A stretch of DNA of 64,000 bases from positions 160,001-224,000 of the forward strand of contig CAWEJX010000004.1 in NCBI GenBank assembly GCA_963809485.1. The letters are read 5' to 3'. A program made the position numbers and the translations under genes. This DNA comes from an uncultured Acidobacteriota bacterium (GTDB lineage Bacteria; Acidobacteriota; UBA6911). Below the pieces are notes generated by a model. The model made no database searches. It was not told the DNA's origin and saw nothing but the letters and a program-made list of their open reading frames with translations. Below, piece after piece: positions 9,480 to 60,555 of the stretch (within the stretch, counting starts at the first letter, position 1; the number at the start of each line of letters is the position of its first letter).

Positions 9480-10514
9480 ATGCAGGAACAAGAACTCGGC
9501 GACCTGGGAATCCATCGCATCCCAATCCCGATCCCATTCCGTCAGGCCGGAGGGCCGGCCAACGCCTACGTCGTCGAAGAAGATAACGGTTTACTGCTGT
9601 TCGATACCGGCATCGGACTGGACGGGTCTCAAAAGGCCTTGGCCGACGGACTAACTCAGACAGGGCATCGTTTTGAAGAAGTGAACCGCATCGTTTTGTC
9701 TCACGGTCATATGGATCATTTCGGCGGAGCTGCCTGGGTCCTGGAACAAATCGGGCGGCCAGTTCCCGTCTCGATTCACAGCGCGGATGCGCACAAAGTT
9801 CTCGAATCGGGATTGCCGCTGCCGGTTCTCTTCAGGCAGAACGCCGGCTATCTTTCCAGGCTCGGATTGCCGCCATCGGTGCTGGAGGAGATAATGGCCG
9901 ATATCGGCAAAGAGTCCGGCATGGGCAGACAGTTGGCTGATGTGACGCCGCTCTGCCCTGGCGACATCCTGCGGTGCAAATACGTCACTCTCGAAGTCCT
10001 CCATATGCCCGGCCACACACCCGGCCTCTGCTGCCTTTACGAACGCAACCACCGGATATTATTCTCAGCTGACCACCTCCTCGAGAACGTGTCACCCAAT
10101 CCGCTTATCGAGCTCACGCCGGGAACCGAACCCGGATGGTTCAAACCGCTGGTTACTTACTTCGAATCCCTCGACCGGCTGCGCGGGCTTGCCATTGACC
10201 TTGTTTTGCCCGGTCATGCGGAGCCGTTCGGTGCGCACCTCGATGTCATCGATTCCCTCCATGCCTTCTATCGGCGCCGCCAGGCCAAGCTTCTGGATTT
10301 ACTCCAACGCGAACCGCGGACCGTCTACGAGCTCATGAGAGAACTCTTCCCTTCCAGCAGCGCTTTCGAACTCTTCCTGACGATGTCGGAAACCCTCGGG
10401 AACCTCGAGATGCTCGAGCATCAGGGCAAGATAAAGCGCGAGACTCATGGTGAATACCTGCGCTTCCAAAAAATTGCCGGTCGATACGGAGACAATTCCG
10501 TCAGAGAAATATAA
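9480..10514 (+). CDS. MBL-fold metallo-hydrolase with C-terminal winged helix
   Basis: SHGHMDHFGG, PGHTPG, SADH, LPGH; GAGG RBS before ATG 9480. Confidence 0.9.
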   Translation: MQEQELGDLGIHRIPIPIPFRQAGGPANAYVVEEDNGLLLFDTGIGLDGSQKALADGLTQTGHRFEEVNRIVLSHGHMDHFGGAAWVLEQIGRPVPVSIHSADAHKVLESGLPLPVLFRQNAGYLSRLGLPPSVLEEIMADIGKESGMGRQLADVTPLCPGDILRCKYVTLEVLHMPGHTPGLCCLYERNHRILFSADHLLENVSPNPLIELTPGTEPGWFKPLVTYFESLDRLRGLAIDLVLPGHAEPFGAHLDVIDSLHAFYRRRQAKLLDLLQREPRTVYELMRELFPSSSAFELFLTMSETLGNLEMLEHQGKIKRETHGEYLRFQKIAGRYGDNSVREI

Positions 10515-10520
10515 AGTGGA

Positions 10521-11897
10521 GTGGGAACGCCAGTGAAGGAACAAATCTTCAAATACCTGCAGGAAGCCGGAAAGGGAGTTTCGGCGGCTCAGATCCTCGC
10601 TGATGTACTGAAGATCGGTTCTCCCAACGACCATTCCTCCGAAAGTATCCTGGCAGGCCTCCTGGGCCAGGATCCGCGATTTGTTTTTGCTGCCGGCCTC
10701 TGGCAACTGCGTCTTCCCTCGGTAAGCGCCCCTGACTGGGACGACAGCCGCATCGTGGTTCTGCATTTGCAGACTGCGGACAATTCGGCGACCTTGCGGC
10801 ATTTTCGCGGTGCAGCCCGCTGGGCAGACAGACGCCTGAAGGAGTTTGCGTCGCCGGCAGCCGTCAGGATCCTGAGCCGGCTTCGCGATGAGATCGAACT
10901 CCATCTCCTGATCGTTTGGAGCGGCCGGGAGCTCGGGATTTGGAACGCATTGATGCAATCGATGAGGCTTGAAGTCTGGCGAGGAGATACTCTGTTCCTG
11001 CGAAACCTTGCCGCGCGGGCGCTGGAACGAGTGCCCTCAAAACTGCAGCCGGAGGACATGGCTCCAATACTGGGCCTCTCGCCTGCAGATGAGGAAAGGC
11101 CGCGTGAGGTGGTTGAATACCTGAGTGCATGTTGGCGGCTCCTTCTGCAGCGCGTTCCAGACGAGTTCTGCCGGACTCTCGATTCGCTCCGCGAATGGAT
11201 CGACGACCGGGGATCGGCGGTTGATTTTAGTCATTTCGCCTTCGGGCCGGACTTCTTACGTCAACTGCCCCGCACAGCCGGGGTATATATAATGACGAAC
11301 CGCGAAGGCAAAATCATTTATGTCGGCAAGTCCCGCAACCTTAGACGTCGCGTTTCCTCCTATTTCACGCCCCAAGCCCGGAATGATCCCAAAACCGCGA
11401 GGATACACGAGCGGCTGTATTCCATCGATGTCTGCACAACCGGAAACGAGATCGAGGCTTTGCTGGTGGAAATGCGCCTGATCAAGGATTTCCGGCCTGC
11501 CATCAACCTGCAGACCGAGATTCACGAAAACATGGCGGGCCAAACTGAAGGACGCAATCTCATCCTTTTCGTGGCTGACGAGGAACAGAAGAAAGCTGAA
11601 ATTTATCTGTTCCGGAATGGGCGCTTTGCCGGCCGGCAATCCGCTCCCCTGGGGCGTTTGCCGTCGAAGCGCCTGCAGGAAAAGATCCGATCCATCTTCT
11701 TCGCACAGGGCAGGATAAGAAAGCGGAAAGGTGAAACCTGGGAAAAGGAAATTGTATCCCGATGGTTCAACGCCAATCGGAAGCGCATGAACTATCTCGA
11801 TGTTGACGAAGCGGGCGACCTGACGCGCGTCAAGGAGCAGCTGACCCGCTACCTTTGCGACCCGGACAAGCTCGCGCACAAGGTCTACTACCGTTAA
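10521..11897 (+). CDS. GIY-YIG endonuclease (UvrC/Cho-like) fused to a degenerate exonuclease-like region
   Basis: LPRTAGVYIM, IIYVGKSRNLRRRVSSYF, EALLVEMRLIKDFRPAIN. Confidence 0.8.
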   Translation: MGTPVKEQIFKYLQEAGKGVSAAQILADVLKIGSPNDHSSESILAGLLGQDPRFVFAAGLWQLRLPSVSAPDWDDSRIVVLHLQTADNSATLRHFRGAARWADRRLKEFASPAAVRILSRLRDEIELHLLIVWSGRELGIWNALMQSMRLEVWRGDTLFLRNLAARALERVPSKLQPEDMAPILGLSPADEERPREVVEYLSACWRLLLQRVPDEFCRTLDSLREWIDDRGSAVDFSHFAFGPDFLRQLPRTAGVYIMTNREGKIIYVGKSRNLRRRVSSYFTPQARNDPKTARIHERLYSIDVCTTGNEIEALLVEMRLIKDFRPAINLQTEIHENMAGQTEGRNLILFVADEEQKKAEIYLFRNGRFAGRQSAPLGRLPSKRLQEKIRSIFFAQGRIRKRKGETWEKEIVSRWFNANRKRMNYLDVDEAGDLTRVKEQLTRYLCDPDKLAHKVYYR

Positions 11898-12136
11898 GCC
11901 GCAGCATATTTTACAGAACAAAATAAAACAAGAAGCAACCGGCCCCTGCAATGTTTTTCATCAAATGCAATTCCACCCCGAACGCCGTCTCTCTGGAAAA
12001 AAATTGGTAAGAGATTTGAGACCGCTGCAGGAAATCCTGAATCTGCCGGCAATCCCGGCCGAAAAGTAACAATGAACCCGATGAATGGATCGTAATGACC
12101 TGAGGATGCAGTCTGTGCTCAGTCGCTGCAGGCTGT

Positions 12137-13360
12137 ATGGCCTCGAGATACCCGGAGATTTCATTGAAAAGGCAACTTCTCATCTCAGGTGTTGCAGCTG
12201 CTTTGGCATTGCTTCTCATGATTCTCTGTGCCGCCGGACAGATTCACATTCCCCAATCGGCGCAGGCGCAAGCAAAGGTTGCCGCGGTCCCGAAGGCACA
12301 GCAGAAGCAGAAGAACAGGGACCGATTAAACATGGAAGTTCGCGGCCTGTATATGACCTCCTGGGTTGCAGGCACCAAACGGTTCCAGGAAATTGCCGAC
12401 GGCGTTTCGCGCTACGGCCTCAACGCCCTGGTCATTGATATCAAGGACTGCACGGGAAAGGTGGGTTACGACTCCGCGGTGCCGATGGTGGCGGAAATTA
12501 AGGCCCGCGAGCGGCGCATACGGGACCTGGATGGCGTGCTCGCTTACTGCCGCGAACGAGGGATCCACACAATTGCCCGCATCGCGGCCTTCCAGGATCC
12601 TGTGCTCGCAGGCGCGAGGCCCGAGCTTGCGATAAAGACGAGCGGCGGATCCGTCTGGACCGATAACAAAGGTCTATCCTGGGTGGACCCCGCCTCCCGC
12701 TGCGTTTGGAAATACAATGTGGACTTAGCCAAAGAAGCTGCGGCGCGGGGCTTTAACGAGGTCCAGTTCGACTATGTCCGTTTTCCGACCGATGGCCGGC
12801 TCACGGGACTGGTATATCCCGCCTACAAAGGCGATGTCCCCAAAAGACAGGTTATCAAGGAATTTTTCCAGTACGCGGACCAGGAACTCAAATCCATCGA
12901 CATCCTTGTCTCAGCCGATATCTTCGGGCTAACGACGGTCGCCATAGACGACCTCAATATCGGGCAGAAGATCGAGGATATAGCCCCATACGTGGATTAT
13001 GTCTGCCCAATGGTATACCCTTCGCATTTCCCGCCGGGCTACCTGGGCCTCAAGAATCCTGCCGAAGAACCCTACAAGGTCATCTTCGACAGCTGCTCGC
13101 GAGGGCTGGAGCGTATCAAAGGGCAACGGGCTAAACTGCGGCCGTGGATCCAGGATTTCGACATCGGTGCCCGTTACGACAGGCGCATGATCCTGGAGCA
13201 GATCCGGGCGCTCCGCGATGCGGGCGCATTCGGTTTCTGCTCCTGGAATGCGAGAAATGTATACACGATCAGCGATTACGAGGCCCCTCTTCCCCAGGCC
13301 AATCCCAACCCGCCGCCGCGTTCCACGCAGACCGCAAGCATTGGTTCCGGGCCGCAGTAA
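12137..13360 (+). CDS. Putative glycoside hydrolase (DUF4015-like), membrane-anchored
   Basis: NALVIDIKD, IARIAAFQD, GFNEVQFDYVRFP, PMVYPSH, LRPWIQDF. Confidence 0.8.
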   Translation: MASRYPEISLKRQLLISGVAAALALLLMILCAAGQIHIPQSAQAQAKVAAVPKAQQKQKNRDRLNMEVRGLYMTSWVAGTKRFQEIADGVSRYGLNALVIDIKDCTGKVGYDSAVPMVAEIKARERRIRDLDGVLAYCRERGIHTIARIAAFQDPVLAGARPELAIKTSGGSVWTDNKGLSWVDPASRCVWKYNVDLAKEAAARGFNEVQFDYVRFPTDGRLTGLVYPAYKGDVPKRQVIKEFFQYADQELKSIDILVSADIFGLTTVAIDDLNIGQKIEDIAPYVDYVCPMVYPSHFPPGYLGLKNPAEEPYKVIFDSCSRGLERIKGQRAKLRPWIQDFDIGARYDRRMILEQIRALRDAGAFGFCSWNARNVYTISDYEAPLPQANPNPPPRSTQTASIGSGPQ

Positions 13361-13419
13361 ATCGCTGCCCGATTGCGTCTCTCCGCTGGAGGCGGCGGTT
13401 TACCAAAGTGAATAAACTG

Positions 13420-13613
13420 ACAATCCCCCAGCTCTGCTCGGGGACTCACAAAGTTTGGCAGTTCCGGGATCATTTAACGCCGACATACACCGACAAAACG
13501 CCGAAGAACGCCGATCAATAAGGCAACGGCCGGCGCTCCAGAGCCAAGGTAGTTCATCCAACCGCTTTGAGCGGTACACACTCAAGCCTCCGGCTCTGCC
13601 GGAGATAGTTGAC
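13420..13613 (+). mobile_element. Divergent IS200/IS605-like non-autonomous element, copy 3
   Basis: CCCCCAGCTCTGCTCGGGGACTCACAAAGTTTG ... CCAACCGCTTTGAGCGG...TCAAGCCTCCGGCTCTGCCGGAGATAGTTGAC; different interior. Confidence 0.6.
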
Positions 13614-13913
13614 CTACTGGCTATCCCGGAGGACCTTCCCCGTGGCCTTGTCTTTCCAGTAAGCCCGCTGCTGGACCGGCCAGTTAAAGGTGATGGCCTG
13701 GTTGGGGCAATCGGTCGCGCAGCAGCCGCAGTACCAGCATTCATCCGGGTGCAGGATGACCGGGGGCATCTTTTCTTCCGGGTTGGGGATAAAGACATCT
13801 ACCTGGCAGACTTCCACGCAGTGGTTGCAGCCGGTACAGACATCAGGATTGAAAATTACCGGATTCGCCGGGCTGATAATATTGGGTAATGCATAAGTTT
13901 CTTTACGAGGCAT
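13614..13913 (-). CDS. 2x[4Fe-4S] ferredoxin, AprB-like
   Basis: CTGCNHCVEVC and ECWYCGCCATDCP. Confidence 0.85.
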   Translation of the reverse strand: MPRKETYALPNIISPANPVIFNPDVCTGCNHCVEVCQVDVFIPNPEEKMPPVILHPDECWYCGCCATDCPNQAITFNWPVQQRAYWKDKATGKVLRDSQ

Positions 13914-13924
13914 AACAGTTCTCC

Positions 13925-49887: not shown

Positions 49888-49908
49888 CGATTTGATAGAT
49901 CGTAATTC

Positions 49909-50149
49909 GGGGTCGGACCACGCTAAATAACTGGCATTAAAGGGTAAAGGTGCAGTTTTGCAGGTCTAAATGGGCTTAGAGCAGAATTGGGGAGGGTATT
50001 TTTGACTGTAAGAAAACAGGGATGTCTCCAATCAGTATGAAAATCCTTACACGTAAAATATGCCGCCCCAAATTGCAGCCGGCCCTTTTATCGGTCCCGA
50101 AAAATTGGTTATCAATAATCCTGCGAAGGCTTTATCGTGGTCTCACCCC
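49909..50149. mobile_element. ~240-bp repeat element with imperfect terminal IRs (GGGGTCGGACCAC / GTGGTCTCACCCC); uninterrupted copy
   Basis: Left part matches 54900-55003, next part matches 58917-58960, right part resembles 52458-52614. Confidence 0.7.
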
Positions 50150-51197: not shown

Positions 51198-52334
51198 ATG
51201 CGAGTTCCGCGTTATCTCGAGAGTGCTGTGGGCGAGGCGTTGCGCAAGAAGATGGCATTCGTCGGCGGTCCCAGGCAGGTCGGCAAAACGACGTTTGCGC
51301 TTGGCTTTCTCGGCAAAAATGCCGATGAAACGCACCCTGCCTATTTAAACTGGGACCGCCCGAGCGTTCCACCCAAATTGAGAAAAGCGGAAATGCCGGC
51401 CGGAGAGCCTCTCGTGCTTCTGGATGAAATCCACAAGTACGCCCGCTGGAGGGGCATGGTCAAGGGAATCTTCGATGTTGAGAAGTCCCGCGGAAAATTC
51501 CTTGTGACCGGTTCCGCCCGGCTCGATTATTATCGTAAAGGGGGAGACTCTCTCGCGGGCCGCTACCGGTAATTTCGTCTCCATCCCTTCTCTCTGAGAG
51601 AACTCAATCGCCACCCGTTGCGGTCGGACCTTTCGGCTTTGCTGCAGTTCGGCGGATTTCCCGAGCCTTTATTCTCGCAGAATGAACCGGAGCATCGAAT
51701 CTGGCGTCGAGACCGCATCGTGCGAGTCGTTCGACAGGACCTCCGTGATTTGGAACAGGTCCGGGAAATCAGTCTCATGGAACACCTGGCCGATTTGCTG
51801 CCGTCCAAAGCAGGTTCCCCGCTGTCGATCAAGAGCCTGAGGGAGGGCCTCCAGATCGACCACAAAACGGCGGAACGCTAGCTGCAGATCCTGGAGAATC
51901 TCTATGTCTGCTTCCGCGTCTCTCCCTATGGCCCCCCGAGGATCCGAGCCGTGAAAAAGGAAAGGAAGTTGTATCTCTGGGACTGGTCGAGCGTTGAGGA
52001 TGCCGGGGCTCGATTTGAGAACCTGGTCGCCTCTCAGCTTCTGAAGTATTGCCACTGGATTGAAGATACCGAGGGCTACCCGATGGAACTCAGGTACCTT
52101 CGAGATACGGACAAACGCGAAGTCGATTTTGTGGTTCTGAAAGATCGCAAGCCACTGTGGGCGGTAGAATGCAAATCAGGAGAGAAGTCCGTCGGTCAAG
52201 CGCTCCGCTACTTCGCCGAAAGAACCGCAATCCCTCGATTTTTCCAGACGCGTCTCGGCGAGAGGCACTTCGAAAGTGGCAAGATCACGGTGTTGCCATT
52301 CACGCGGCTTTGTCAAGAGCTCGAGCTGCCATAG
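51198..52334 (+). pseudogene. AAA ATPase with DUF4143 domain; two in-frame stops
   Basis: GPRQVGKTT, LLDEIH, TGSA, SLAGR, GGFPE, FEN, REVDF in one frame; TAA at 51570-72 and TAG at 51879-81. Confidence 0.85.
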
Positions 52335-52728
52335 CGCCGGGGGGCTTGAAACAATATGAGAAAAGATCACGGTCTTGCGGGTTTTCTGTTAGGAGATTGT
52401 ATCCGATGCGATATCGGTTCATCAGCTGCTGCGATATCGTAACGGTGTCACGGGCTTGGTATTTTTGGCTTCAGAAAAATCAGCAAGGTCTTCAAACATA
52501 GTGAAAATCCTTAAATTCAAAAAATGCCGCCCAAAATTGTGGCTAAGTCATCTTTCCAGCCCCAATAATCGAGCTATCGATTTTTTTGCAAAGGCATTAC
52601 CGTGGTCTGTCCCCGTTAAACCATTTCTTTTCTATGGGCGCCCATCCAATTTTGCTATATTAGCTCTACCCGATTGATCCCACATTGCATGCATTGAACC
52701 CGATGTCGACGTGGAGGAAGCGCTCCCT

Positions 52729-53339
52729 ATGATCGGCAAGACGCTGGGGCACTATAGAGTCGGCGAACAGCTTGGCCGCGGAGGCATGGGGGAAGTCTTT
52801 GTTGCCGATGACCTCAATTTGAACCGCAAGGTCGCCCTCAAGTTCCTTCCCGAAGCATTCACGGGCGATCCCGAAAGAATGGCCCGCTTCGAGCGCGAGG
52901 CCCGACTTCTGGCATCGCTCAATCATCCCAGCATCGCTGCGATCTATGGACTCGAACAGGCCGAAGGCAAGAGGTTCCTCGTCCTGGAACTGGTAGAGGG
53001 CGAGAATCTGGCGCAGAGGACCGGCTGTCGAGGGCCCCTAATCAATTGCTATGGTACGACCGGCAGGGAAAAGTCCTCGGATCCGTTGGACCGCCGGGCA
53101 TCTAATCAATTCCGGTAATTTCTCCGGATGGCAGGCGATTCGCGGTCAGGACTGCGCCGGATTTTGAAGCCGGTGTCCCTGTTACTCTTTTTAATGCCTT
53201 TCCCGGCGCCTGGCGGACCCGGAACAATTTCGATGTCACAAGCGACGGGCAACGCTTCCTCATTGTCAGCCTGACCCGGGACGAGACCACTTCATCGATC
53301 ACCGTTACTCTTAATTGGACTGCCCTGGCAAAGAAATGA
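52729..53339 (+). pseudogene. Internally deleted Ser/Thr kinase-beta-propeller gene
   Basis: LGRGGMGEV, VALK, RFEREA, HPSIA N-lobe; then QLLWYDRQG..*..PVISPDGRRFA; then FDVTSDGQRFL...VTLNW C-terminus; catalytic loop absent. Confidence 0.8.
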
Positions 53340-53486
53340 CGCTCCCCCACCCTCTTCCGGGCCCTGCTGCGCAATATAAACCTGAATTTACCTGCAATAC
53401 CGCCCACAAGGAGTTTATAGCCTGACGGTAAAAATGCTCGCACGATTTCCTTGCAAATTAGAGGGCGGCGCTCTAATCTGCATAGT

Positions 53487-54647
53487 ATGTGGCGACGCCT
53501 GGCTCAAACGAGATTGCGTGCACTCTGGCGGCAGTTTCCGGCCGTGCTGATTTTGGGAGCGCGCCAGGTCGGCAAAACGACACTGGCCCGCCAGACATTT
53601 CCCGGCTTTCCCTACTGCGACCTGGAGGAACCGCACCTCCGTGCACTGTTTGCCGACGATCCGACATTCCAGATCCAACAACGTTCGCGCCCCGCACTCA
53701 TTATTGACGAAGCTCAGGCCGTGCCCGCTGTTTTTAATTCACTGCGCGGAATCATCGACGCACATCGCAAGAAGAATGGCCGCTTTCTGTTGCTTGGTTC
53801 GGCGCAGCCTTCGCTGGTCCGCCAGATTTCCGAATCGCTCGCCGGCCGGGTCGGAATCCTGGAATTGGACCCGCTTACCGCAGCTGAGGCCGCCACGGGG
53901 GACCGGGCGCGAGACTGGCAGCAATTATGGCTGCAGGGAGGTTTTCCCGATGCTTTGGGCGGCTCCTTTCGCGAATGGTGGGAAGCCTACTTGCGGACTT
54001 ATGTGGAGCGCGACCTACCTCAATTGGGAGTTCCTGCAGATCCCATTCTGCTGCGCCGCCTGCTCACGATGCTGGCGCACATCCAGGGCGGCATGCTCAA
54101 TGCTTCGCAACTCGGCAACTCCCTGGACGTTACGTACCATACGGTGCAGCGCTACCTGAGCGTTCTTGAGCAGACCTTCATTATCCGGCACCTCCCGCCA
54201 TACTATCGCCACATCGGGAAACGCCTGACGAAAGCTCCAAAAATCTATTTGCGCGATACCGGACTGCTGCACCATCTGCTCAATATCAATACGCTGGAGG
54301 AACTCGATCATCATCCCCAGCGCGGCGCCAGCTGGGAGACGTTTGTAATGGAAGACCTCATTCGCAGAGAGAAACTGCGCCATCCGCACGCGCAATTCTA
54401 TTATTGGAGAACTGCGACCGGAGCAGAGCTTGACCTGTTGCTGGACCGCGGATCCCAACGCATTGGAATTGAGATTAAAGCCGGGCGAGGCGACAAAACA
54501 ACTATTGCCCGCGCAACCGAGCAGATTGCCAAGGATGCAGGCGCCACTTCGGTTTGGATTCTCGATCAGGCTGCAGGTACGGAGGCTCTCCGGCCATCTG
54601 TCCGGCGGCGCGGCTTCGCCGAAAGCCTAAAATGGCTTCCCTCCTGA
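53487..54647 (+). CDS. AAA ATPase with DUF4143 domain (intact)
   Basis: GARQVGKTT, IIDEAQ, LGSA, SESLAGR, GGFP, KAPKIYLRDTG, WE, YWRT..GAELDL. Confidence 0.9.
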   Translation: MWRRLAQTRLRALWRQFPAVLILGARQVGKTTLARQTFPGFPYCDLEEPHLRALFADDPTFQIQQRSRPALIIDEAQAVPAVFNSLRGIIDAHRKKNGRFLLLGSAQPSLVRQISESLAGRVGILELDPLTAAEAATGDRARDWQQLWLQGGFPDALGGSFREWWEAYLRTYVERDLPQLGVPADPILLRRLLTMLAHIQGGMLNASQLGNSLDVTYHTVQRYLSVLEQTFIIRHLPPYYRHIGKRLTKAPKIYLRDTGLLHHLLNINTLEELDHHPQRGASWETFVMEDLIRREKLRHPHAQFYYWRTATGAELDLLLDRGSQRIGIEIKAGRGDKTTIARATEQIAKDAGATSVWILDQAAGTEALRPSVRRRGFAESLKWLPS

Positions 54648-54823
54648 TACACTAGCCTGGGCCTCACTGCGAAAAATAAACCTGGCCGAATAATTCGAGA
54701 TTCGATCTTTGTGGAATTAGCGAACTTCATGGCATTCTGCGTCTTGAAATCCATTACAATGTGCCCAACACGATTCTATCAAATTGTATTGAACCGGTTG
54801 TCGACGTGGAGGAGGCGCTCCCG

Positions 54824-54895
54824 ATGATCGGCACGACACTCGGGCATTACCGGATCACCAGCCAGCTTGGATTAGGGGGTAATTTGGACAATTAG
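54824..54895 (+). pseudogene. 5' stub of a second Ser/Thr kinase gene
   Basis: MIGTTLGHYRITSQLG.GG; leader TGTCGACGTGGAGGA.GCGCTCCC.ATGATCGGCA shared with ~52704-52738. Confidence 0.7.
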
Positions 54896-55022
54896 TGACA
54901 ATTCGGGGTCGGACCACTTTAAATCACTGGAAGGGGAAAGGTGCAGTTATGCGGGCCTAAATGGGCCTAAAACAGAATTGAGGGGGGGCATTTTTGATTG
55001 TAATTGACCGGCCAATCGCTGC

Positions 55023-56171
55023 CTATTTTTCTTCTCCAGCCGATCCTGAAGGGTGGAGTTTTTTCAGTTTGCTTGACACCTTGGCAAGCCGATTGATGAG
55101 GCGCTGCATTGTAAGCTGTTGTTTTGAAGCGTTGAGGCCTCGCCGATTCATTTCGAGGAAGTGCATCGCATCGGCAATGCACTGGAGAGCACGGATATGA
55201 GGGTGTACGGATTGGTTACGGGGATTGCTGCGTTGCGGCAGCTGGTAGAGGTTGGCCAGGTTGGCTCGGGCCGAACTATATTCGCGTTGTAGATCTACCT
55301 GACTCACCTCTACATAACGCATTGTCATTTCGATTTTTGTATGTCCGAGGAGTGTTTTGACTGCAGGCAGGCTGGCGCCGCCGCGGAGCATCTCGGTCGC
55401 AAAAGTATGTCTCATTTGATGCGTCGTGATTCGGGACGCACTGCAGTTTGCTTTTCGGGCCGCTTTCCTGATCATCGCGACCATTTGGCTATACGAAGGA
55501 CGGGAGCCATCTTCGCGCATTAGCAAGAAGGTGGATAATTTTCTGGCCTTAGCCGGGGCTCGATTGCGCAAATCATCGAGGTGTTCAATAAGACTACGGC
55601 TATGGGCGTCCAAGGGAACCAATCTTTCCGTATGCATCTTGCCGAGAGGGACGCGGATTGCCCACTGTTGATCGCCCAGATCCCGGAAGCAATCGACTGC
55701 GAGATTCAAACATTCACCAACGCGCATACCGGTGGCACGCATGAGAAGCAGCGCAGTTGCTTCAACGGTGCCTTTTTTGCGGAGTTCTTCGCAAATGAGG
55801 CGATCATCTTCGGGCGAGAGGGGCCGGGGAAGGTACTTGTCCAGGTGTGGGAAGTCTCGGCGAACGATGAGGTTTTCTCTTATTCGGTCTATTCCTTCAT
55901 CGGCAAGGTCGCGAAGGCACTTGCGTAGCTCATAGAGTTGGTGGAGACGGGTGCAGGTTCGGGAGCTGGCCAAAGTTGAGATCCATCCGAGGATATGCGG
56001 ATCCCGCCTGAGTTGGGAGAGCTTATGAATCTCGGGGTGGTTTTGTTTGAGGAAGCGCATGAAGCCATTCAAAGTGCTTCGATACCGATACATCGTGTTT
56101 GGCCTGTGAACAATAGCAAGACTCTGAAGATAGGAATCGAAGATCTGTTGAATAGTGCGCGGTTTACTCAT
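55023..56171 (-). CDS. Tyrosine recombinase 2
   Basis: TGMRVGE, VPLGK..TER, THQMRHTFA, LLGH..IEMT.RY; full catalytic set; helical C-terminal extension. Confidence 0.92.
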   Translation of the reverse strand: MSKPRTIQQIFDSYLQSLAIVHRPNTMYRYRSTLNGFMRFLKQNHPEIHKLSQLRRDPHILGWISTLASSRTCTRLHQLYELRKCLRDLADEGIDRIRENLIVRRDFPHLDKYLPRPLSPEDDRLICEELRKKGTVEATALLLMRATGMRVGECLNLAVDCFRDLGDQQWAIRVPLGKMHTERLVPLDAHSRSLIEHLDDLRNRAPAKARKLSTFLLMREDGSRPSYSQMVAMIRKAARKANCSASRITTHQMRHTFATEMLRGGASLPAVKTLLGHTKIEMTMRYVEVSQVDLQREYSSARANLANLYQLPQRSNPRNQSVHPHIRALQCIADAMHFLEMNRRGLNASKQQLTMQRLINRLAKVSSKLKKLHPSGSAGEEK

Positions 56172-57222
56172 CGAAGGAAGCACTCCGGAGTTGGGCCAAC
56201 GCTTGCGATCGCTTTTCGACGGCGCGGTGATATTCCCGCCAGACATCCTGGGGAGACAATTCCACGTAGAGCATGGTCGTGTGAATCTGAGAATGACCCA
56301 TGAGTCGCATCAGTGCGGGTACTGAAACGCCGGCACGGATCATGTCGGCACCGAAGGTGTGGCGGAACCGATGCGGGTGGGCGTTGATCGTTTGAGTCGC
56401 ACGTCGATGGTGACGAAACAACGAACGCAGGCCGGCGGATGTCATCGGTTGGCCGCGCCGCCATCCCTTGAGAGAAAGAAACAGGAGGGGCGACCCGAAA
56501 GCAGGCCGTTCGAATTCGAGATAACGCCTAAGAACCCGAATGATCGCATCTGCCAATGGCAGAACCCGCTGTCTGTTTCCTTTGCCACGAACAAAGATCT
56601 GAGTCTCGGAAAGCCGCAAATCTTCGAGCCGGAGTTGGATCGTTTCATGGGAACGCAGGCCGTTAAAAAGCATCAATCCCACGAGACTGAGGTCACGGAA
56701 GGTGCGAAAGCTGGACCAGAAACGTGAAACTTCATCAGGCTGGAGGGGGATGACGACTTTTCGAGGTTGTCGTAACCGCAGTCCCGCGATTGCGGTGCTG
56801 GGTTTTCCTATGCCCATTGGACTTCGTCTCTTGTATCGGGTTTGCACACTGGCGCGAGTTCTGGGGACTTCCTTCTGGTAGTAGAATCGGTACAGGGATC
56901 GGACAACCACCAAACGATGATTGACCGTAGGCGGCGACGGCTTGGGTTCGTTTTCAAGTTGGTATCGAACGTAATCGAGCAGACGAAGCTCGTTGAGAGT
57001 GGATAGACTCGGCCAGCGAGAACCGTGTAACCACCAACGGACGAAGTTCAACAGATCGAACCCATACGAGCGCAAGGAACGGACGGAAAGGTTGCGCAGG
57101 TACTGGGCATCCAGAAAATCATTGATGAAACGGACCGGCTGGTCCTTAGAATCCAAGAGTTGATAGGGAGACATGCCCGCAGGGCCGGATGGGTAACGAA
57201 TGAGATGAAAAGGCGGGGTCAT
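56164..57222 (-). CDS. Tyrosine recombinase 1
   Basis: NGLRSHE, RGKGNRQR, HPHRFRHTFG, LMGH..IHTT.LY; ATGA overlap with the primase stop. Confidence 0.92.
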   Translation of the reverse strand: MTPPFHLIRYPSGPAGMSPYQLLDSKDQPVRFINDFLDAQYLRNLSVRSLRSYGFDLLNFVRWWLHGSRWPSLSTLNELRLLDYVRYQLENEPKPSPPTVNHRLVVVRSLYRFYYQKEVPRTRASVQTRYKRRSPMGIGKPSTAIAGLRLRQPRKVVIPLQPDEVSRFWSSFRTFRDLSLVGLMLFNGLRSHETIQLRLEDLRLSETQIFVRGKGNRQRVLPLADAIIRVLRRYLEFERPAFGSPLLFLSLKGWRRGQPMTSAGLRSLFRHHRRATQTINAHPHRFRHTFGADMIRAGVSVPALMRLMGHSQIHTTMLYVELSPQDVWREYHRAVEKRSQALAQLRSASFDE

Positions 57223-58226
57223 ACACATTGTGCTTCCTCCAGACATCTTGTGAAATCAGCAGCGGTGGCTCCGGAAACAAAGAAACTATTGGGATCATGG
57301 TTTTCCGGAAGCGGTACGATCTTCGATTGCAGACCGGCCTCCCGGAGTTGCCGTGCCAGTTTCAAAGCAGCGCGTTGACCGGCAGCATTCGTATCCGAGT
57401 CAAAAGCAATGAAGATCTGTCTATTGAGATCGTCGCATAGTTGGGCAAACTGCTTGCCTGTCAGGTGGCAGCCGAGAGCGCTGGTTGTATTGCGAAAGCC
57501 AGCCTGCCAGAGAACCGCAAGATCGAAAAGGCCTTCCACCAGGATAACGTTGGGAGCATTGTGAATCGACTCCCATGCGACCAGGCCGATCCTAACACGA
57601 GGCAGAAATCGATGTGGCGGCGGGGGACCGATGCTGCGTCCGTACAGATTGACGATGCGGTTCTGATCGAGACAAGGAAAGACGATGCGGTGAAAGAAGG
57701 TGTCATGCCCCTTTTGATTTATCAATCCAAGATTCACGAGCCGGTCGTAATTGTGGCCGCATACCGATAACAGGTGCCCACGCAAACTGCCGCCTGGCGC
57801 ATAGCCCAATCGAAGGTGACGTAATATCTCTGGATCCCGCAATCCGCGTTGGTGAAGATAGTTCATCGCTTCCTGGTGGTGCTGCAACTGATACTGGTAA
57901 AAAGCGACCGTATCGCGGAGGAGGTCGTCATCACCCCTGAGCTTGTCCCATTCTCCGGCCAGCCGTGCGACGCTATCGCGGAAAGAAAGGTTGAAGTAGA
58001 CCTGGACGAAGCGAATCAAGTCGCCGCCATAGCCACAGCCATGGCAGTGAAAAAGATTTTTCTCGGCGTTGACATAGAACGACGGCTGGGTCTCGGAGTG
58101 CAGCGGGCACAATCCAACATATTCGTTCCCTGAACCCACAGGACGGCCAGTCCAATTGAGGCGTTTGAGATAATCCAACAGTGGAAGATCGCGCTTAAGT
58201 TTTTCCACTTCCTTGCAGTTTGCCAT
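57219..58226 (-). CDS. DnaG-type primase (CHC2 zinc finger + Toprim), no helicase-binding domain
   Basis: CPLHSETQPSF, FHCHGCG.GGD, YL..RG, RIVFP, LVEGLFD, FDSD..GQ.AA, DPN. Confidence 0.9.
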   Translation of the reverse strand: MANCKEVEKLKRDLPLLDYLKRLNWTGRPVGSGNEYVGLCPLHSETQPSFYVNAEKNLFHCHGCGYGGDLIRFVQVYFNLSFRDSVARLAGEWDKLRGDDDLLRDTVAFYQYQLQHHQEAMNYLHQRGLRDPEILRHLRLGYAPGGSLRGHLLSVCGHNYDRLVNLGLINQKGHDTFFHRIVFPCLDQNRIVNLYGRSIGPPPPHRFLPRVRIGLVAWESIHNAPNVILVEGLFDLAVLWQAGFRNTTSALGCHLTGKQFAQLCDDLNRQIFIAFDSDTNAAGQRAALKLARQLREAGLQSKIVPLPENHDPNSFFVSGATAADFTRCLEEAQCV

Positions 58227-58609
58227 CAGAGCCTCCGGACGGGAACGCCTGTTCGGCCGCAAATGATGCAGGCGATACGTTCGAGAGGGTTTGCTCTCGC
58301 AGATCCGACGTTCCCTGACTTTGATGGATCGATCCTGACATTACTGTCTTGGCTTCTGGAACCCTGATACGTCACGCTTTTTTTATTGGACTGGCGCAGA
58401 CGATAGTTGCGCTGGTGGTCTCGATGGTCGAGTTTGCCTAAGGGACTTTGCCGGTAGCGTCTATTCGCTTCGCGCAGTTGGTGCCGGCGGGCGCGGTCCC
58501 GACATGCCTGACTGCAGTAGTGCTGTCCGCGATCGCAGTGACTGCAGATATGGAATATCTTGCCGCACCCCGCGGCATGGCAAGATCGTTGCCGGAGGAT
58601 GAGTTCCAG
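58226..58609 (-). CDS. Cys-rich basic protein (~127 aa), absent from the ORF track
   Basis: Hand translation: LELILRQRSCHAAGCGKIFHICSHCDRGQHYCSQACRDRARRHQLREANRRYRQSPLGKLDHRDHQRNYR...VTYQGS...CIICGRTG; TGATG overlap with the primase start; CTG start, or TTG start if the C-run has one extra base. Confidence 0.75.
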   Translation of the reverse strand: MELILRQRSCHAAGCGKIFHICSHCDRGQHYCSQACRDRARRHQLREANRRYRQSPLGKLDHRDHQRNYRLRQSNKKSVTYQGSRSQDSNVRIDPSKSGNVGSARANPLERIACIICGRTGVPVRRL

Positions 58610-59043
58610 GGGCCAATCGTCCTTTCCCGAAGGCGGGACTCGACAACGGCCCCCATGTCATGGCACGCTAAAGACGACTTTGGTTCTGGGAGCTTTAACC
58701 GGGCTCTTGGAATTTAGCCTCGATCGTTACAGCGGTCGGGGCTTTCTTTTTCCGCCTTTCACGCCGCCACGATATCACCACCAGGGCTCAAGAAATCTAT
58801 TGCAGTTACCCAGAAGCAAAGAACACGGCTGAATAAAAGAGAAACCAGCTGAAAGAAAAAATAGGCAGCCACTCCTGGGCTGGTTTAGAAAAAACGACAT
58901 TTTGGCCGGTTAATAGGTAAGAAATCGGGGATGTTTCCAATCAGAATGAAAATCCCTACATACTCAGCATCTTTTCGAAGGGCGGCGCGTCAGGCGTTTT
59001 GTGAGAATTGAATCTGTGGCCATGCGCGAACCTACTCATAAGG

Positions 59044-59085
59044 TTCAGCGTTCATCGGCGTTTTTGTCAGCGTAGGTCAGCGTTA
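59044..59085 (+). repeat. Four-unit TC(A/G)GCG phased array
   Basis: tcagcgttca tcggcgtttttg tcagcgtagg tcagcgtt (10-12-10). Confidence 0.7.
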
Positions 59086-59109
59086 AAAGGGCCTGGAGCC
59101 CCGGCGCAG

Positions 59110-60555
59110 CTAAAAAGCTTCCCGTATCTTCGCCGCCCAGTGGACGAAATTGCCGTAGAGGTGCCCAAGGTGGGGCGCCGGGGAAAAGTGCCCGTGCCTG
59201 AGGTCCGTCTCCAGGGACTTTTTCATCAGCTCCATCGGGATATTTTTGCTGTCGGGCAGCGTGCGGTCGTAAAAGAACAGCAATTCAACATGGGCGCCAT
59301 GGCCATACTCGATCGGGATAATCTGGAAATTATTCGGCGCGTTTAAAATCAGCTTCCTATCGATGAAGTCGTTGAGGAACTCCGGAAACGCTTTAGCTAT
59401 CTCACAGGTGTGGCGGAGCGAGTCTGCGTGCAGGACCGGCGCCCACCCTCCGCCAAGCTTCAGCACGCGTTGCAGGAAACTCACGATGATGAAGAAGTCC
59501 ATATTGTCTTCCCATATCTTACGAATGGATGGATCGACTTCTTCTCCCCCAGTTTCTCTGACGATATCCCACAGGACCCGCTCCTCATACGCCGTTTCCT
59601 CCGGAGACGAGGTGGCCAGGTAAACCCAGACCGCGCAGGACAGCTCTTTCTGGAAAAGTCCGCTGTTCCACAGCGTCCAGAAATCGTTGGCCGAAACCGT
59701 GAACATCACAGCCGCAGTGGCATAGAAGAACTTCAGCACCGCCGCACCGATTTCGGCTCTGCCCATTTCGATCATGAAATCGCGGGCCTTTTCGAGCGCA
59801 GCAAACTTGAAGATAAAGACTTTGTGGCAGTCCTGAGGCAGGCGGACCTTGTACGATGGAGTGCGTCCAAAAGACGGCATGACTGCAGGCCCTTTCCAGG
59901 CGTCCAGGCCAATGGCTGCCTTGGTAAAAACGCCGCGCCCCTTCTGAATCAAGCCTACCAGACTTGGTCCGGGCCCATCCGGGCAGAACCATCCGGCGTC
60001 ACCTCCAAGAGAGCCGGCCCTGAGAATTTCGCCTGAAGGCATCACCCACTCGTATCCCAGCAGATAGCGGTTATTCTTCGAGGTGCTGTGCTGGTTGTGG
60101 TGTTCCCCCTTGCCCAGAAAGTTTGACATTACCGAGCACGACGGTCCTACGGACGGGACCGGATAGCTCAGTCCCCTTTTCATGAGTTCCGGCTTCAACT
60201 GGACATGCCGGACTCCGGGCTCAACCACCACGTAGCGGTCCTCTTCGTTGATCTCCAGGATCCGATTCATTCGTCTCAGGCTGAGAATGATCTTCAGCTT
60301 GGGGCCGGGCGGCATTCCGGCGGAAAGGAGCGAGACGACTGAATTGCACTGGATGTCGTACTGCCTGCATATTTTGACGACAGCCTGCACCTCTTCGGTA
60401 TTGCCCGGCAAAACGACGGCATCGGGGCTTGCGGGCTTGCGGCCATCCTGGGGCGAAGTGTGCCGGTAGGCGGCGAGGATATGGGGGCGGCCACTTATGT
60501 ATTCTTTCCCCACAACGCCTTCGAGCATCCTGAAAATATCTTCCGGTAAGCTCAT
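59110..60555 (-). CDS. FAD-binding oxidoreductase (GlcD/VAO family)
   Basis: PDAVVLP..TEEVQ, LRRMNRILEI, VVEPGV, EWVMPSGE, WFCPDGPGPSL. Confidence 0.85.
   Translation of the reverse strand: MSLPEDIFRMLEGVVGKEYISGRPHILAAYRHTSPQDGRKPASPDAVVLPGNTEEVQAVVKICRQYDIQCNSVVSLLSAGMPPGPKLKIILSLRRMNRILEINEEDRYVVVEPGVRHVQLKPELMKRGLSYPVPSVGPSCSVMSNFLGKGEHHNQHSTSKNNRYLLGYEWVMPSGEILRAGSLGGDAGWFCPDGPGPSLVGLIQKGRGVFTKAAIGLDAWKGPAVMPSFGRTPSYKVRLPQDCHKVFIFKFAALEKARDFMIEMGRAEIGAAVLKFFYATAAVMFTVSANDFWTLWNSGLFQKELSCAVWVYLATSSPEETAYEERVLWDIVRETGGEEVDPSIRKIWEDNMDFFIIVSFLQRVLKLGGGWAPVLHADSLRHTCEIAKAFPEFLNDFIDRKLILNAPNNFQIIPIEYGHGAHVELLFFYDRTLPDSKNIPMELMKKSLETDLRHGHFSPAPHLGHLYGNFVHWAAKIREAF

Follow-up and report, generated by a model that had tools for sequence, protein, structure and literature searches.

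Transposons that move by means of several tyrosine recombinases are the closest described relatives of the locus analyzed here. According to genetics cited in PMC10214605, Tn554 needs both TnpA and TnpB and, by the same paper, TnpC (DUF6262) as well; its authors, who deal with the SE elements, regard the transposition route of Tn554 as not resolved, and they propose a one-strand "copy-out" that needs DNA synthesis for the SE and the Tn554-related elements and distinguish five groups of tyrosine-recombinase transposons, none of them presented there with a primase. A family that carries its own primase would offer a way to test how the multi-tyrosine-recombinase transposons (Tn554, SE, GInt, RIT) move. 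Such a family is represented by the element at positions 55000-58921 of the window, by which term we designate the whole 64,000-nucleotide stretch of DNA analyzed, from an uncultured Acidobacteriota bacterium (GenBank assembly GCA_963809485.1, contig CAWEJX010000004.1, positions 160,001 to 224,000 of the forward strand).

The element is a Tn554-lineage two-recombinase transposon with a DnaG-type primase as its constant third gene. The explanation that we favor, and hold with moderate confidence, is that of an autonomous site-specific transposon in which the recombinase pair carries out the movement, the primase primes an intermediate, and a Cys-rich protein plays an accessory part. The original prediction, made from the letters of the window, had proposed a compact integrative element of a distinct class, in which two tyrosine recombinases (YR1 and YR2) were paired with a primase and a Cys-rich protein. 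In what follows, G000 denotes the source genome of the window, G006 and G012 are genomes of the same genus, and L-numbers refer to loci retrieved.

Limits and Gene Content of the Element

A second copy is located on another contig of the same genome (G000:C7:257811-261732) and is 100% identical to the first over window 55000-58921. This identity ends exactly at both borders, with not one base beyond, and the flanks of the two copies are unrelated; the true limits of the element are therefore those of window 55000-58921, in agreement with the discrete compact element that had been predicted at 55000..58920. The existence of two identical copies, together with the unoccupied forms of both insertion sites described below, bears out the proposal that the element is mobile via its tyrosine recombinases. 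The element is thus a discrete, autonomous and site-specific transposon that has moved. As to the objection, raised along with the prediction, that genes of this kind might lie inside a larger prophage or an integrative and conjugative element, the present element is not part of one: its flanks consist of ordinary chromosomal genes, and the family was not found in the viral contigs searched.

Counted between the outer limits of its arms the element has 3910 bp, to which the 7-nt overlap is added, and it contains four genes, all on the minus strand, placed head to tail and tightly packed. The first is the Cys-rich open reading frame (ORF), open from 58657 to a TGA at 58228-58226 and encoding a protein that combines a zinc ribbon with a basic helical hairpin and a CxxC at its C-terminus. 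The ATG of the following gene overlaps that TGA by one base, and its product is a DnaG-type primase of 335 aa (58226-57219) with a CHC2 zinc-binding and a Toprim polymerase domain, but no helicase-binding domain. The gene of YR1, a tyrosine recombinase of the TnpA-like lineage (57246-56164; 360 aa; Pfam Phage_integrase, 2e-31), overlaps that of the primase by 28 nt, and is in turn overlapped by 83 nt by the gene of YR2, of the TnpB-like lineage (56246-55023; 407 aa; Phage_integrase, 6e-31). The ORF map and the Pfam matches thereby agree with the four co-oriented, overlapping genes that had been read from the sequence. No cargo gene was found in the element, nor did the ORFs, the Pfam matches and a repeat search disclose within it any helicase, initiator or partition gene, or any iteron-like repeats; window 54500-59400 gave no Rfam match, and a promoter and terminator scan remained near the shuffle level. 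A sigma-70-like -35/-10 pair—a consensus match only—is present at window 55025-54997 on the minus strand, where it crosses the element end and points outward into the flank, which flank supplies part of the -10 hexamer.

The Primase and Its Linkage to the Recombinases

The primase matched the CHC2 zinc-ribbon (5e-20), DnaG_N (5e-10) and Toprim (2e-16) families of Pfam, and its profile aligned with the zinc-binding and polymerase domains of the Aquifex DnaG (2au3) at an E-value of 6.6e-52 over profile positions 1-313. The protein does not extend past the Toprim domain into a helicase-binding domain, and reached 181.2 bits with the full-length DnaG model TIGR01391 versus a cut-off of 283.6; the ordinary dnaG of the same genome is separate, being a 596-aa frame on C20. 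The acidic residues of the EGxxD and DxD motifs are invariant in 15 primase sequences, and the catalytic and zinc-binding residues are all invariant across relatives at 44-86% identity, which invariance points to selection for enzyme activity.

Metagenome contigs were scanned with the primase profile, and the linkage counts refer to the 80 loci kept among the matches listed. Of the 72 loci that leave 400 nt or more for it, 70 have YR1 downstream of the primase, the other two being borderline; YR2 comes next in all but one of the 48 loci long enough to include it (47), the exception being interrupted. Among 301 genomes of the phylum, moreover, the primase and YR1 profiles pointed to an identical set of five loci, in two genomes. 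The family is widespread in soil metagenomes, since primase relatives were encoded in at least 574 of the 600 pattern-matching metagenome stretches examined, and the top 120 homologues were 57-100% identical. The primase clade was absent from 2.9 million viral contigs, where the best of 34 matches reached 31% identity, and its best plasmid matches were about 30% identical. That the primase is part of the element, as the original prediction had it, is confirmed by the position of YR1 in those 70 loci; on the evidence of gene order and conserved residues, this gene is a constant core gene of the family, tightly linked and with its active site intact.

In G012, two 3464-bp copies contain a related recombinase pair preceded by a Cys-rich-like gene and the gene of a 105-aa protein, with no primase; the 105-aa protein, standing in the primase slot, matches the N-terminus of the phage replication initiator PHROG 19658 (E 1.1e-6). 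These copies (L113:6123-9585 and 10460-13922) are 99.9% identical, lie 874 bp apart in the same orientation, and share in their right flanks a 16-nt stretch like the terminal arm.

Kinship of the Recombinases

Both recombinases possess full catalytic sets, as the original prediction had recognized in the form of R-K-H-R-H-Y: R198, K222, H292, R295, H318 and Y327 in YR1, and R175, K203, H276 and R279 plus a GH...Y motif in YR2. The two proteins remained distant from the housekeeping recombinases, with NCBIfam scores of 121.6 and 119.5 bits for XerC versus a cut-off of 335, and of 109 and 117.4 for XerD versus 329.6, and were far under the NCBIfam integron-integrase cut-offs also. Among plasmids, YR1 was closest to the short member of certain actinobacterial recombinase pairs (33-37% identity, E down to 8e-50), which pairs then carry a DUF6262 gene, in the same order as the tnpA, tnpB and tnpC (DUF6262) of Tn558, and were termed Tn554-related by Van Houdt et al. 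(2012). YR2, for its part, gave 130 bits (E 4e-37) with the long partner from Dietzia over the core-binding and catalytic domains, whereas YR1 gave only 53 bits with the long partner and YR2 65 bits with the short one, the pairing being in consequence reciprocal.

In a tree of 40 recombinase sequences (quick search, SH-aLRT support, no bootstrap), the YR1 clade (support 100) was the sister of the actinobacterial TnpA-like sequence (89), with the Tn558 TnpA joining the YR1 side at 82, and the YR2 clade (99) was the sister of the actinobacterial TnpB-like proteins (87), followed by the Tn558 TnpB (93). Taken together, the reciprocal scores and the tree place YR1 and YR2, as far as sequence comparison reaches, as the TnpA-like and TnpB-like members of a distant branch of the Tn554 recombinase lineage, a kinship that we count as shown; the distinct class that had been postulated does not find support in either. 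YR2 is without the N-terminal extension of about 230 aa of the Tn554-family TnpB. In five metagenome loci (L122, L123, L128, L136, and L148) YR2 is 649-698 aa long, with two additional N-terminal copies of a core-binding-like domain, and these long forms come near the length of the Tn554-family TnpB.

The RIT-like trios of the same genome fell elsewhere in the tree, save one gene pair near the TnpA-like clade (support 83). At G000:C20:1020233-1026254, seven tyrosine-recombinase genes stand in two opposed runs—three on the plus strand and four on the minus—which arrangement looks like two RIT-type trios head to head.

The Ends of the Element

Two inverted repeats flank the genes: an inner one, matching at 13 of 13 positions (55018-55030, where the right copy overlaps the YR2 stop codon, and 58857-58869 on the left), and an outer one, matching at 12 of 13 (55003-15 and 58902-14). 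The perfect 13-bp repeats that had been taken for the termini do exist, but their standing as conserved ends was lost upon comparison, because among 45 elements they are private to this one and the others are at the shuffle level; we accordingly rejected the inner repeat as a family feature. The outer repeat comprises the 12-bp inverted arms proper, at 55004-55015 on the recombinase-proximal end—presumably a recombinase binding site—and at 58902-58913 on the recombinase-distal end. With 44 related elements carrying the arm TTRACCGGCYAA and its complement at opposite ends, the question of whether homologues share terminal inverted repeats can be answered in the affirmative for these outer arms. 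The arm spacing in the 44 elements ranged from 3429 to 4732 bp, with a median of 3959. The ends of two further elements, G314a and G314b (4106 bp, 99.9% identical), do not fit the simple arm-plus-7 scheme.

The 7 nt just outside the arms constitute a direct repeat, whose copies were identical at all seven positions in 16 of the 44 elements, at six in 17, at five in 6, at four in 4, and at three in 1. Position by position, the identity was 43, 43, 44, 42, 33, 33, and 25 of 44. As a control, the adjoining 7 nt farther out mostly matched at 0-2 positions. The recombinase-distal 7-mer, TAGGTAA on the plus strand at 58914-58920, is identical in both copies of the present element, and the distal 7-mer is likewise identical in both copies of the G012 variant; since it is unchanged between copies it must travel with the element, which behavior is not that of a DDE-type target duplication. 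The recombinase-proximal 7-mer varies with the insertion site; in copy 1, it occupies 54997-55003, is target-derived, and has only 55000-55003 (GTAA) in common with the other copy. On these alignments the 7-nt repeat is the overlap of a tyrosine-recombinase core site, with one copy coming from the element and the other from the target; within it, identity is required chiefly at the first four positions (GTAA on the plus strand), which the targets share. The two copies agree at 6 of the 7 overlap positions, a value that fits a carried 7-mer either fixed or copied from the donor flank.

Insertion Sites and Surroundings

The unoccupied form of the copy-2 site was found in G006, the closest relative in the genus, where the two flanks are joined with GTAAG once, versus GTAAT...element...GGTAAG in the occupied form; the recombinase-proximal 7-mer of copy 2 is the single 7-mer of that unoccupied site. 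For copy 1, a contig from a public run links window 54986 to 58918 with 12 other letters between. Copy 1 is inserted within a dispersed repeat of about 150-200 nt (window 54785-55003 plus 58922-59031), which has several copies in the genome and the genus, including a paralogue at window 49904-50050 and further ones on C7 and C12; an uninterrupted paralogue reads GTAAG at the insertion point. The unoccupied copy-1 site was not found in 29 genomes of the genus because of these repeat-rich flanks.

Among the fetched loci, arm-like half sites adjoin the right ends of only two elements, G314c and that of L134: at L233:3290-3330 (the third G314 copy) and at L134:3925 a 10-nt left-arm-like sequence stands 7-8 nt beyond the right arm, and could be a target half-site or the remnant of another copy.

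Beyond the element, a 42-nt unit with three ACGCTGA motifs at window 59044-59085 occurs more than 30 times in the genome, in part in tandem at C7:251553-252063, and resembles a repetitive extragenic palindromic (REP)-type intergenic repeat. On the other side, window 51951-53118 contains a C-terminal DUF4143 fragment (127 aa) and an N-terminal Ser/Thr-kinase fragment (135 aa), standing upstream of an intact DUF4143/AAA_14 gene (53451-54647), and the neighborhood of copy 1 in this respect looks rearranged.

The Cys-Rich Gene and Its Leader

The ATG upstream of the Cys-rich gene, at 58656, belongs to a different reading frame from the zinc ribbon. Translation may start at the CTG at 58609-58607, which codon is the first in-frame candidate and is found behind an AAGGA motif. 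In L015, the closest relative with a normal gene, the Cys-rich protein begins with MGAVVESRLRE; here and in L115 alike, this stretch is not read in the frame of the zinc ribbon, and L115 has also lost the ATG. In four elements whose Cys-rich proteins are only 60-72% identical, the DNA of that stretch and of about 110 nt ahead of it is conserved, and the conserved leader (58595-58750, minus strand) is predicted to form two hairpins, the second spanning the out-of-frame ATG together with MGAVVESRLRE and containing the entire "MGAVVESRLRERTIGP" stretch. The fold was derived from four sequences with two compensatory pairs, a weak covariation, and we mention only as a lead that the leader may be conserved as a cis element and not for what it encodes.

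That the family is defined by the four-gene unit, as originally conceived, could not be maintained. The Cys-rich family was present in 10 of the 80 primase-linked loci, with a DUF6431 zinc-ribbon gene in 54, and in the G012 variant it is the primase that is replaced, by the initiator-like small protein. Conversely, the primase and the recombinases were present in only 4 of the 80 genome loci found with the Cys-rich family; in 59 of the other 76 an IS21-type transposase adjoins the Cys-rich gene, and of the remaining 17 the one that was examined has the gene beside ArdC on a conjugative element. In that locus, from a Terriglobia metagenome-assembled genome (L028:5962-12011), the Cys-rich gene directly precedes that of the anti-restriction protein ArdC, with a TraG/VirB4-type ATPase nearby. 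The genome of the window itself has two IS21-type copies, whose Cys-rich gene is 44% identical to that of the element (G000:C12:21600-24620 and G000:C20:513000-515540); these elements (L238 and L239) are composed of the Cys-rich gene, IstA, IstB and an ORF of about 120 aa, and this four-gene form is multi-copy in many Acidobacteriota metagenome-assembled genomes, with at least 8 loci in one assembly, for example. The Cys-rich gene is therefore common to three unrelated kinds of mobile element: the IS21-type, the conjugative, and the primase-carrying transposon.

At E<=0.001, the family comprises 3882 representative sequences. The protein belongs to no Pfam or NCBIfam family and its atlas neighbors are unnamed. 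Its AlphaFold model (mean predicted local distance difference test score, 76.5) exhibits the zinc ribbon, the basic helical hairpin and a C-terminal CxxC hairpin, but neither Foldseek at E<=0.001 nor VIA above a Z of 3.4 returned a match for it; comparison of the family with the Tn558 TnpC profile gave a probability of 0.04. We conclude that the Cys-rich protein is an exchangeable accessory, outside the recombination chemistry, and that it is probably nucleic-acid-binding.

Possible Routes of Transposition

By analogy with Tn554, YR1 and YR2 would act jointly on the two 12-bp inverted arms, and the joining of the ends would rebuild a classical core site consisting of arm, 7-nt overlap, and arm. 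The resulting circular form, an intermediate that we infer, would integrate into targets matching the overlap, always in the first four positions, and the primase would prime either complementary-strand synthesis after a one-strand exchange, as in the copy-out proposal, or replication of the excised circle. The priming of DNA synthesis on the transposition intermediate is the most likely function of the primase, and the idea that the excised form may be primed or replicated by the element's own enzyme was already contained in the original prediction. The junction asymmetry, in which the overlap of the element is distal and that of the target proximal, is the one described for the SE and Tn554-related elements (PMC10214605). 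An element-borne primase fits the copy-out route, and the initiator-like protein in the primase slot of G012 fits that route too.

Several observations weigh against this explanation. Tn554 moves without a primase, and the closely related recombinase pair of G012 occurs as two near-identical copies without one. TnpC is missing, no ORF of the element having matched DUF6262 in Pfam. The tree supports that link the pair to Tn554 are moderate (82-93), and the branch of the Tn558 TnpA is long. Ahead of the zinc ribbon, the Cys-rich frame contains no ATG, GTG or TTG. The contig with the unoccupied copy-1 site has a depth of 2, and two bases beside the joint are off expectation. Finally, no circular junction was found in the public-run contigs, in the 160 fetched loci or in the genome itself, which genome also contains no arm-overlap-arm site.

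A stricter version of the same explanation, which we advance only tentatively, would have the element as a self-priming replicative transposon with obligatory copy-out, in which the one-strand exchange generates a single-stranded bridge or circle on which the primase of the element would prime the complementary strand, the conserved leader hairpins being perhaps the starting point. If true, this would be the first prokaryotic transposon family with a DnaG-type primase in its transposition machinery and would lend direct support to the copy-out route proposed for Tn554 and the SE elements.

Less probable, though still deserving of consideration, is an integrative mini-episome, which would be cut out and pasted in conservatively, the primase serving only to start a plasmid-like replication of the excised circle and so prevent its loss. 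ColE2-type replicons, which start by means of a plasmid-specific primase, are what such an episome would resemble. The ends would indeed rebuild a full arm-overlap-arm site, like the attachment sites of phages and of integrative and conjugative elements, unoccupied sites are known for both copies, and the primase slot of G012 holds a replication-initiator-like protein; yet the element has none of the helicase, initiator or partition genes or iteron-like repeats of a replicon, circular or permuted contigs were absent among the 160 fetched loci, and contigs of about 4 kb stop at the element borders, as is expected of dispersed chromosomal repeats.

We consider it doubtful that the primase has no priming role, be it as a structural or accessory partner of the recombinases in replacement of TnpC or Srap, or as a cargo or counter-defense gene. 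The family lacks the TnpC/DUF6262 that Tn554 needs according to PMC10214605, the genes in the slots ahead of the recombinases can be exchanged for others, and DnaG-like domains are also found in defense-associated reverse transcriptases; the invariance of the catalytic and zinc-binding residues at 44-86% identity and the near-absolute linkage to the recombinase pair nevertheless run counter to such a role. Finally, a non-autonomous fragment of a phage or conjugative element, or a P4-like satellite, is highly improbable: integrase-primase pairs are typical of satellites and the Cys-rich family also stands beside ArdC on a conjugative element, but the primase clade is absent from the 2.9 million viral contigs (its best match among 34 being the one at 31% identity), the flanks are chromosomal with a precise unoccupied site, and 44 elements combine conserved ends with a steady size of 3.4-4.7 kb.

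The autonomous, primase-carrying transposon that we favor is well suited to experiment: with four genes in 3.9 kb, defined 12-bp arms and a 7-nt overlap, it could easily be rebuilt as a mini-element, and the primase could be inactivated by point mutation.

Comparison with Known Systems

The conjugative-plasmid primases TraC and Sog are short DnaG-type enzymes without a helicase-binding domain that prime the complementary strand of incoming single-stranded DNA. Those primases belong to large transfer systems, whereas the primase described here is encoded on a 3.9-kb transposon without transfer genes. With the IS21-family elements of the Acidobacteriota that carry a Cys-rich gene, the present element shares a first gene of the Cys-rich family (44% identity), compactness and the multi-copy habit; but the former move by the DDE transposase IstA and the AAA+ helper IstB, and have neither the recombinase pair nor the primase, while both IstA and IstB are absent from the ORFs and Pfam matches of the element. 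The BIM elements were considered as nearest kin and rejected, since, as described in PMC3414803, they combine one recombinase with an SMC-like protein.

The RIT elements are likewise compact, cargo-free and multi-copy, with tyrosine recombinases between inverted repeats; they have, however, three recombinases and no primase, against the two recombinase genes found here. The SE, GInt and gamma-mobile-trio elements also have several tyrosine recombinases together with small accessory proteins, and the same junction asymmetry (PMC10214605). They differ in that the present element has no counterpart of Tfp or Srap and no catalytically dead recombinase-fold gene—the NCBIfam scores being 27.8 bits versus a cut-off of 340 for GmtY and 21.7 versus 600 for GmtZ—and in that those elements are of 7-16 kb with cargo, come from Gammaproteobacteria, and have not been reported with a primase.

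In the literature searched, we found no description of the architecture that joins a primase to a recombinase pair, nor of a DnaG-type primase as a constant core gene of such elements; the original prediction had held that no DnaG primase is part of the RIT or Tn554 architecture. The family lists in the supplements of PMC3414803 and PMC8138268 may hold such recombinases unremarked. The family so defined is small in size, cargo-free and widespread in soil metagenomes, and its primase gene is tightly bound to a recombinase pair of the Tn554 type.

It is to the Tn554 family that the element comes closest. Both have adjacent genes for a short TnpA-like and a TnpB-like recombinase in the same order, both insert site-selectively, and in both a short junction sequence moves with one end, the target's copy being at the recombinase-proximal end (PMC10214605). 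The differences lie in the absence of TnpC/DUF6262, in place of which a DnaG-type primase and a zinc-ribbon gene stand upstream; in the length of YR2, 407 aa versus the 637-655 aa of TnpB, although some relatives have a YR2 of 649-698 aa; and in an element that is cargo-free, with clear 12-bp inverted arms, and hosted by Acidobacteriota and other soil phyla.

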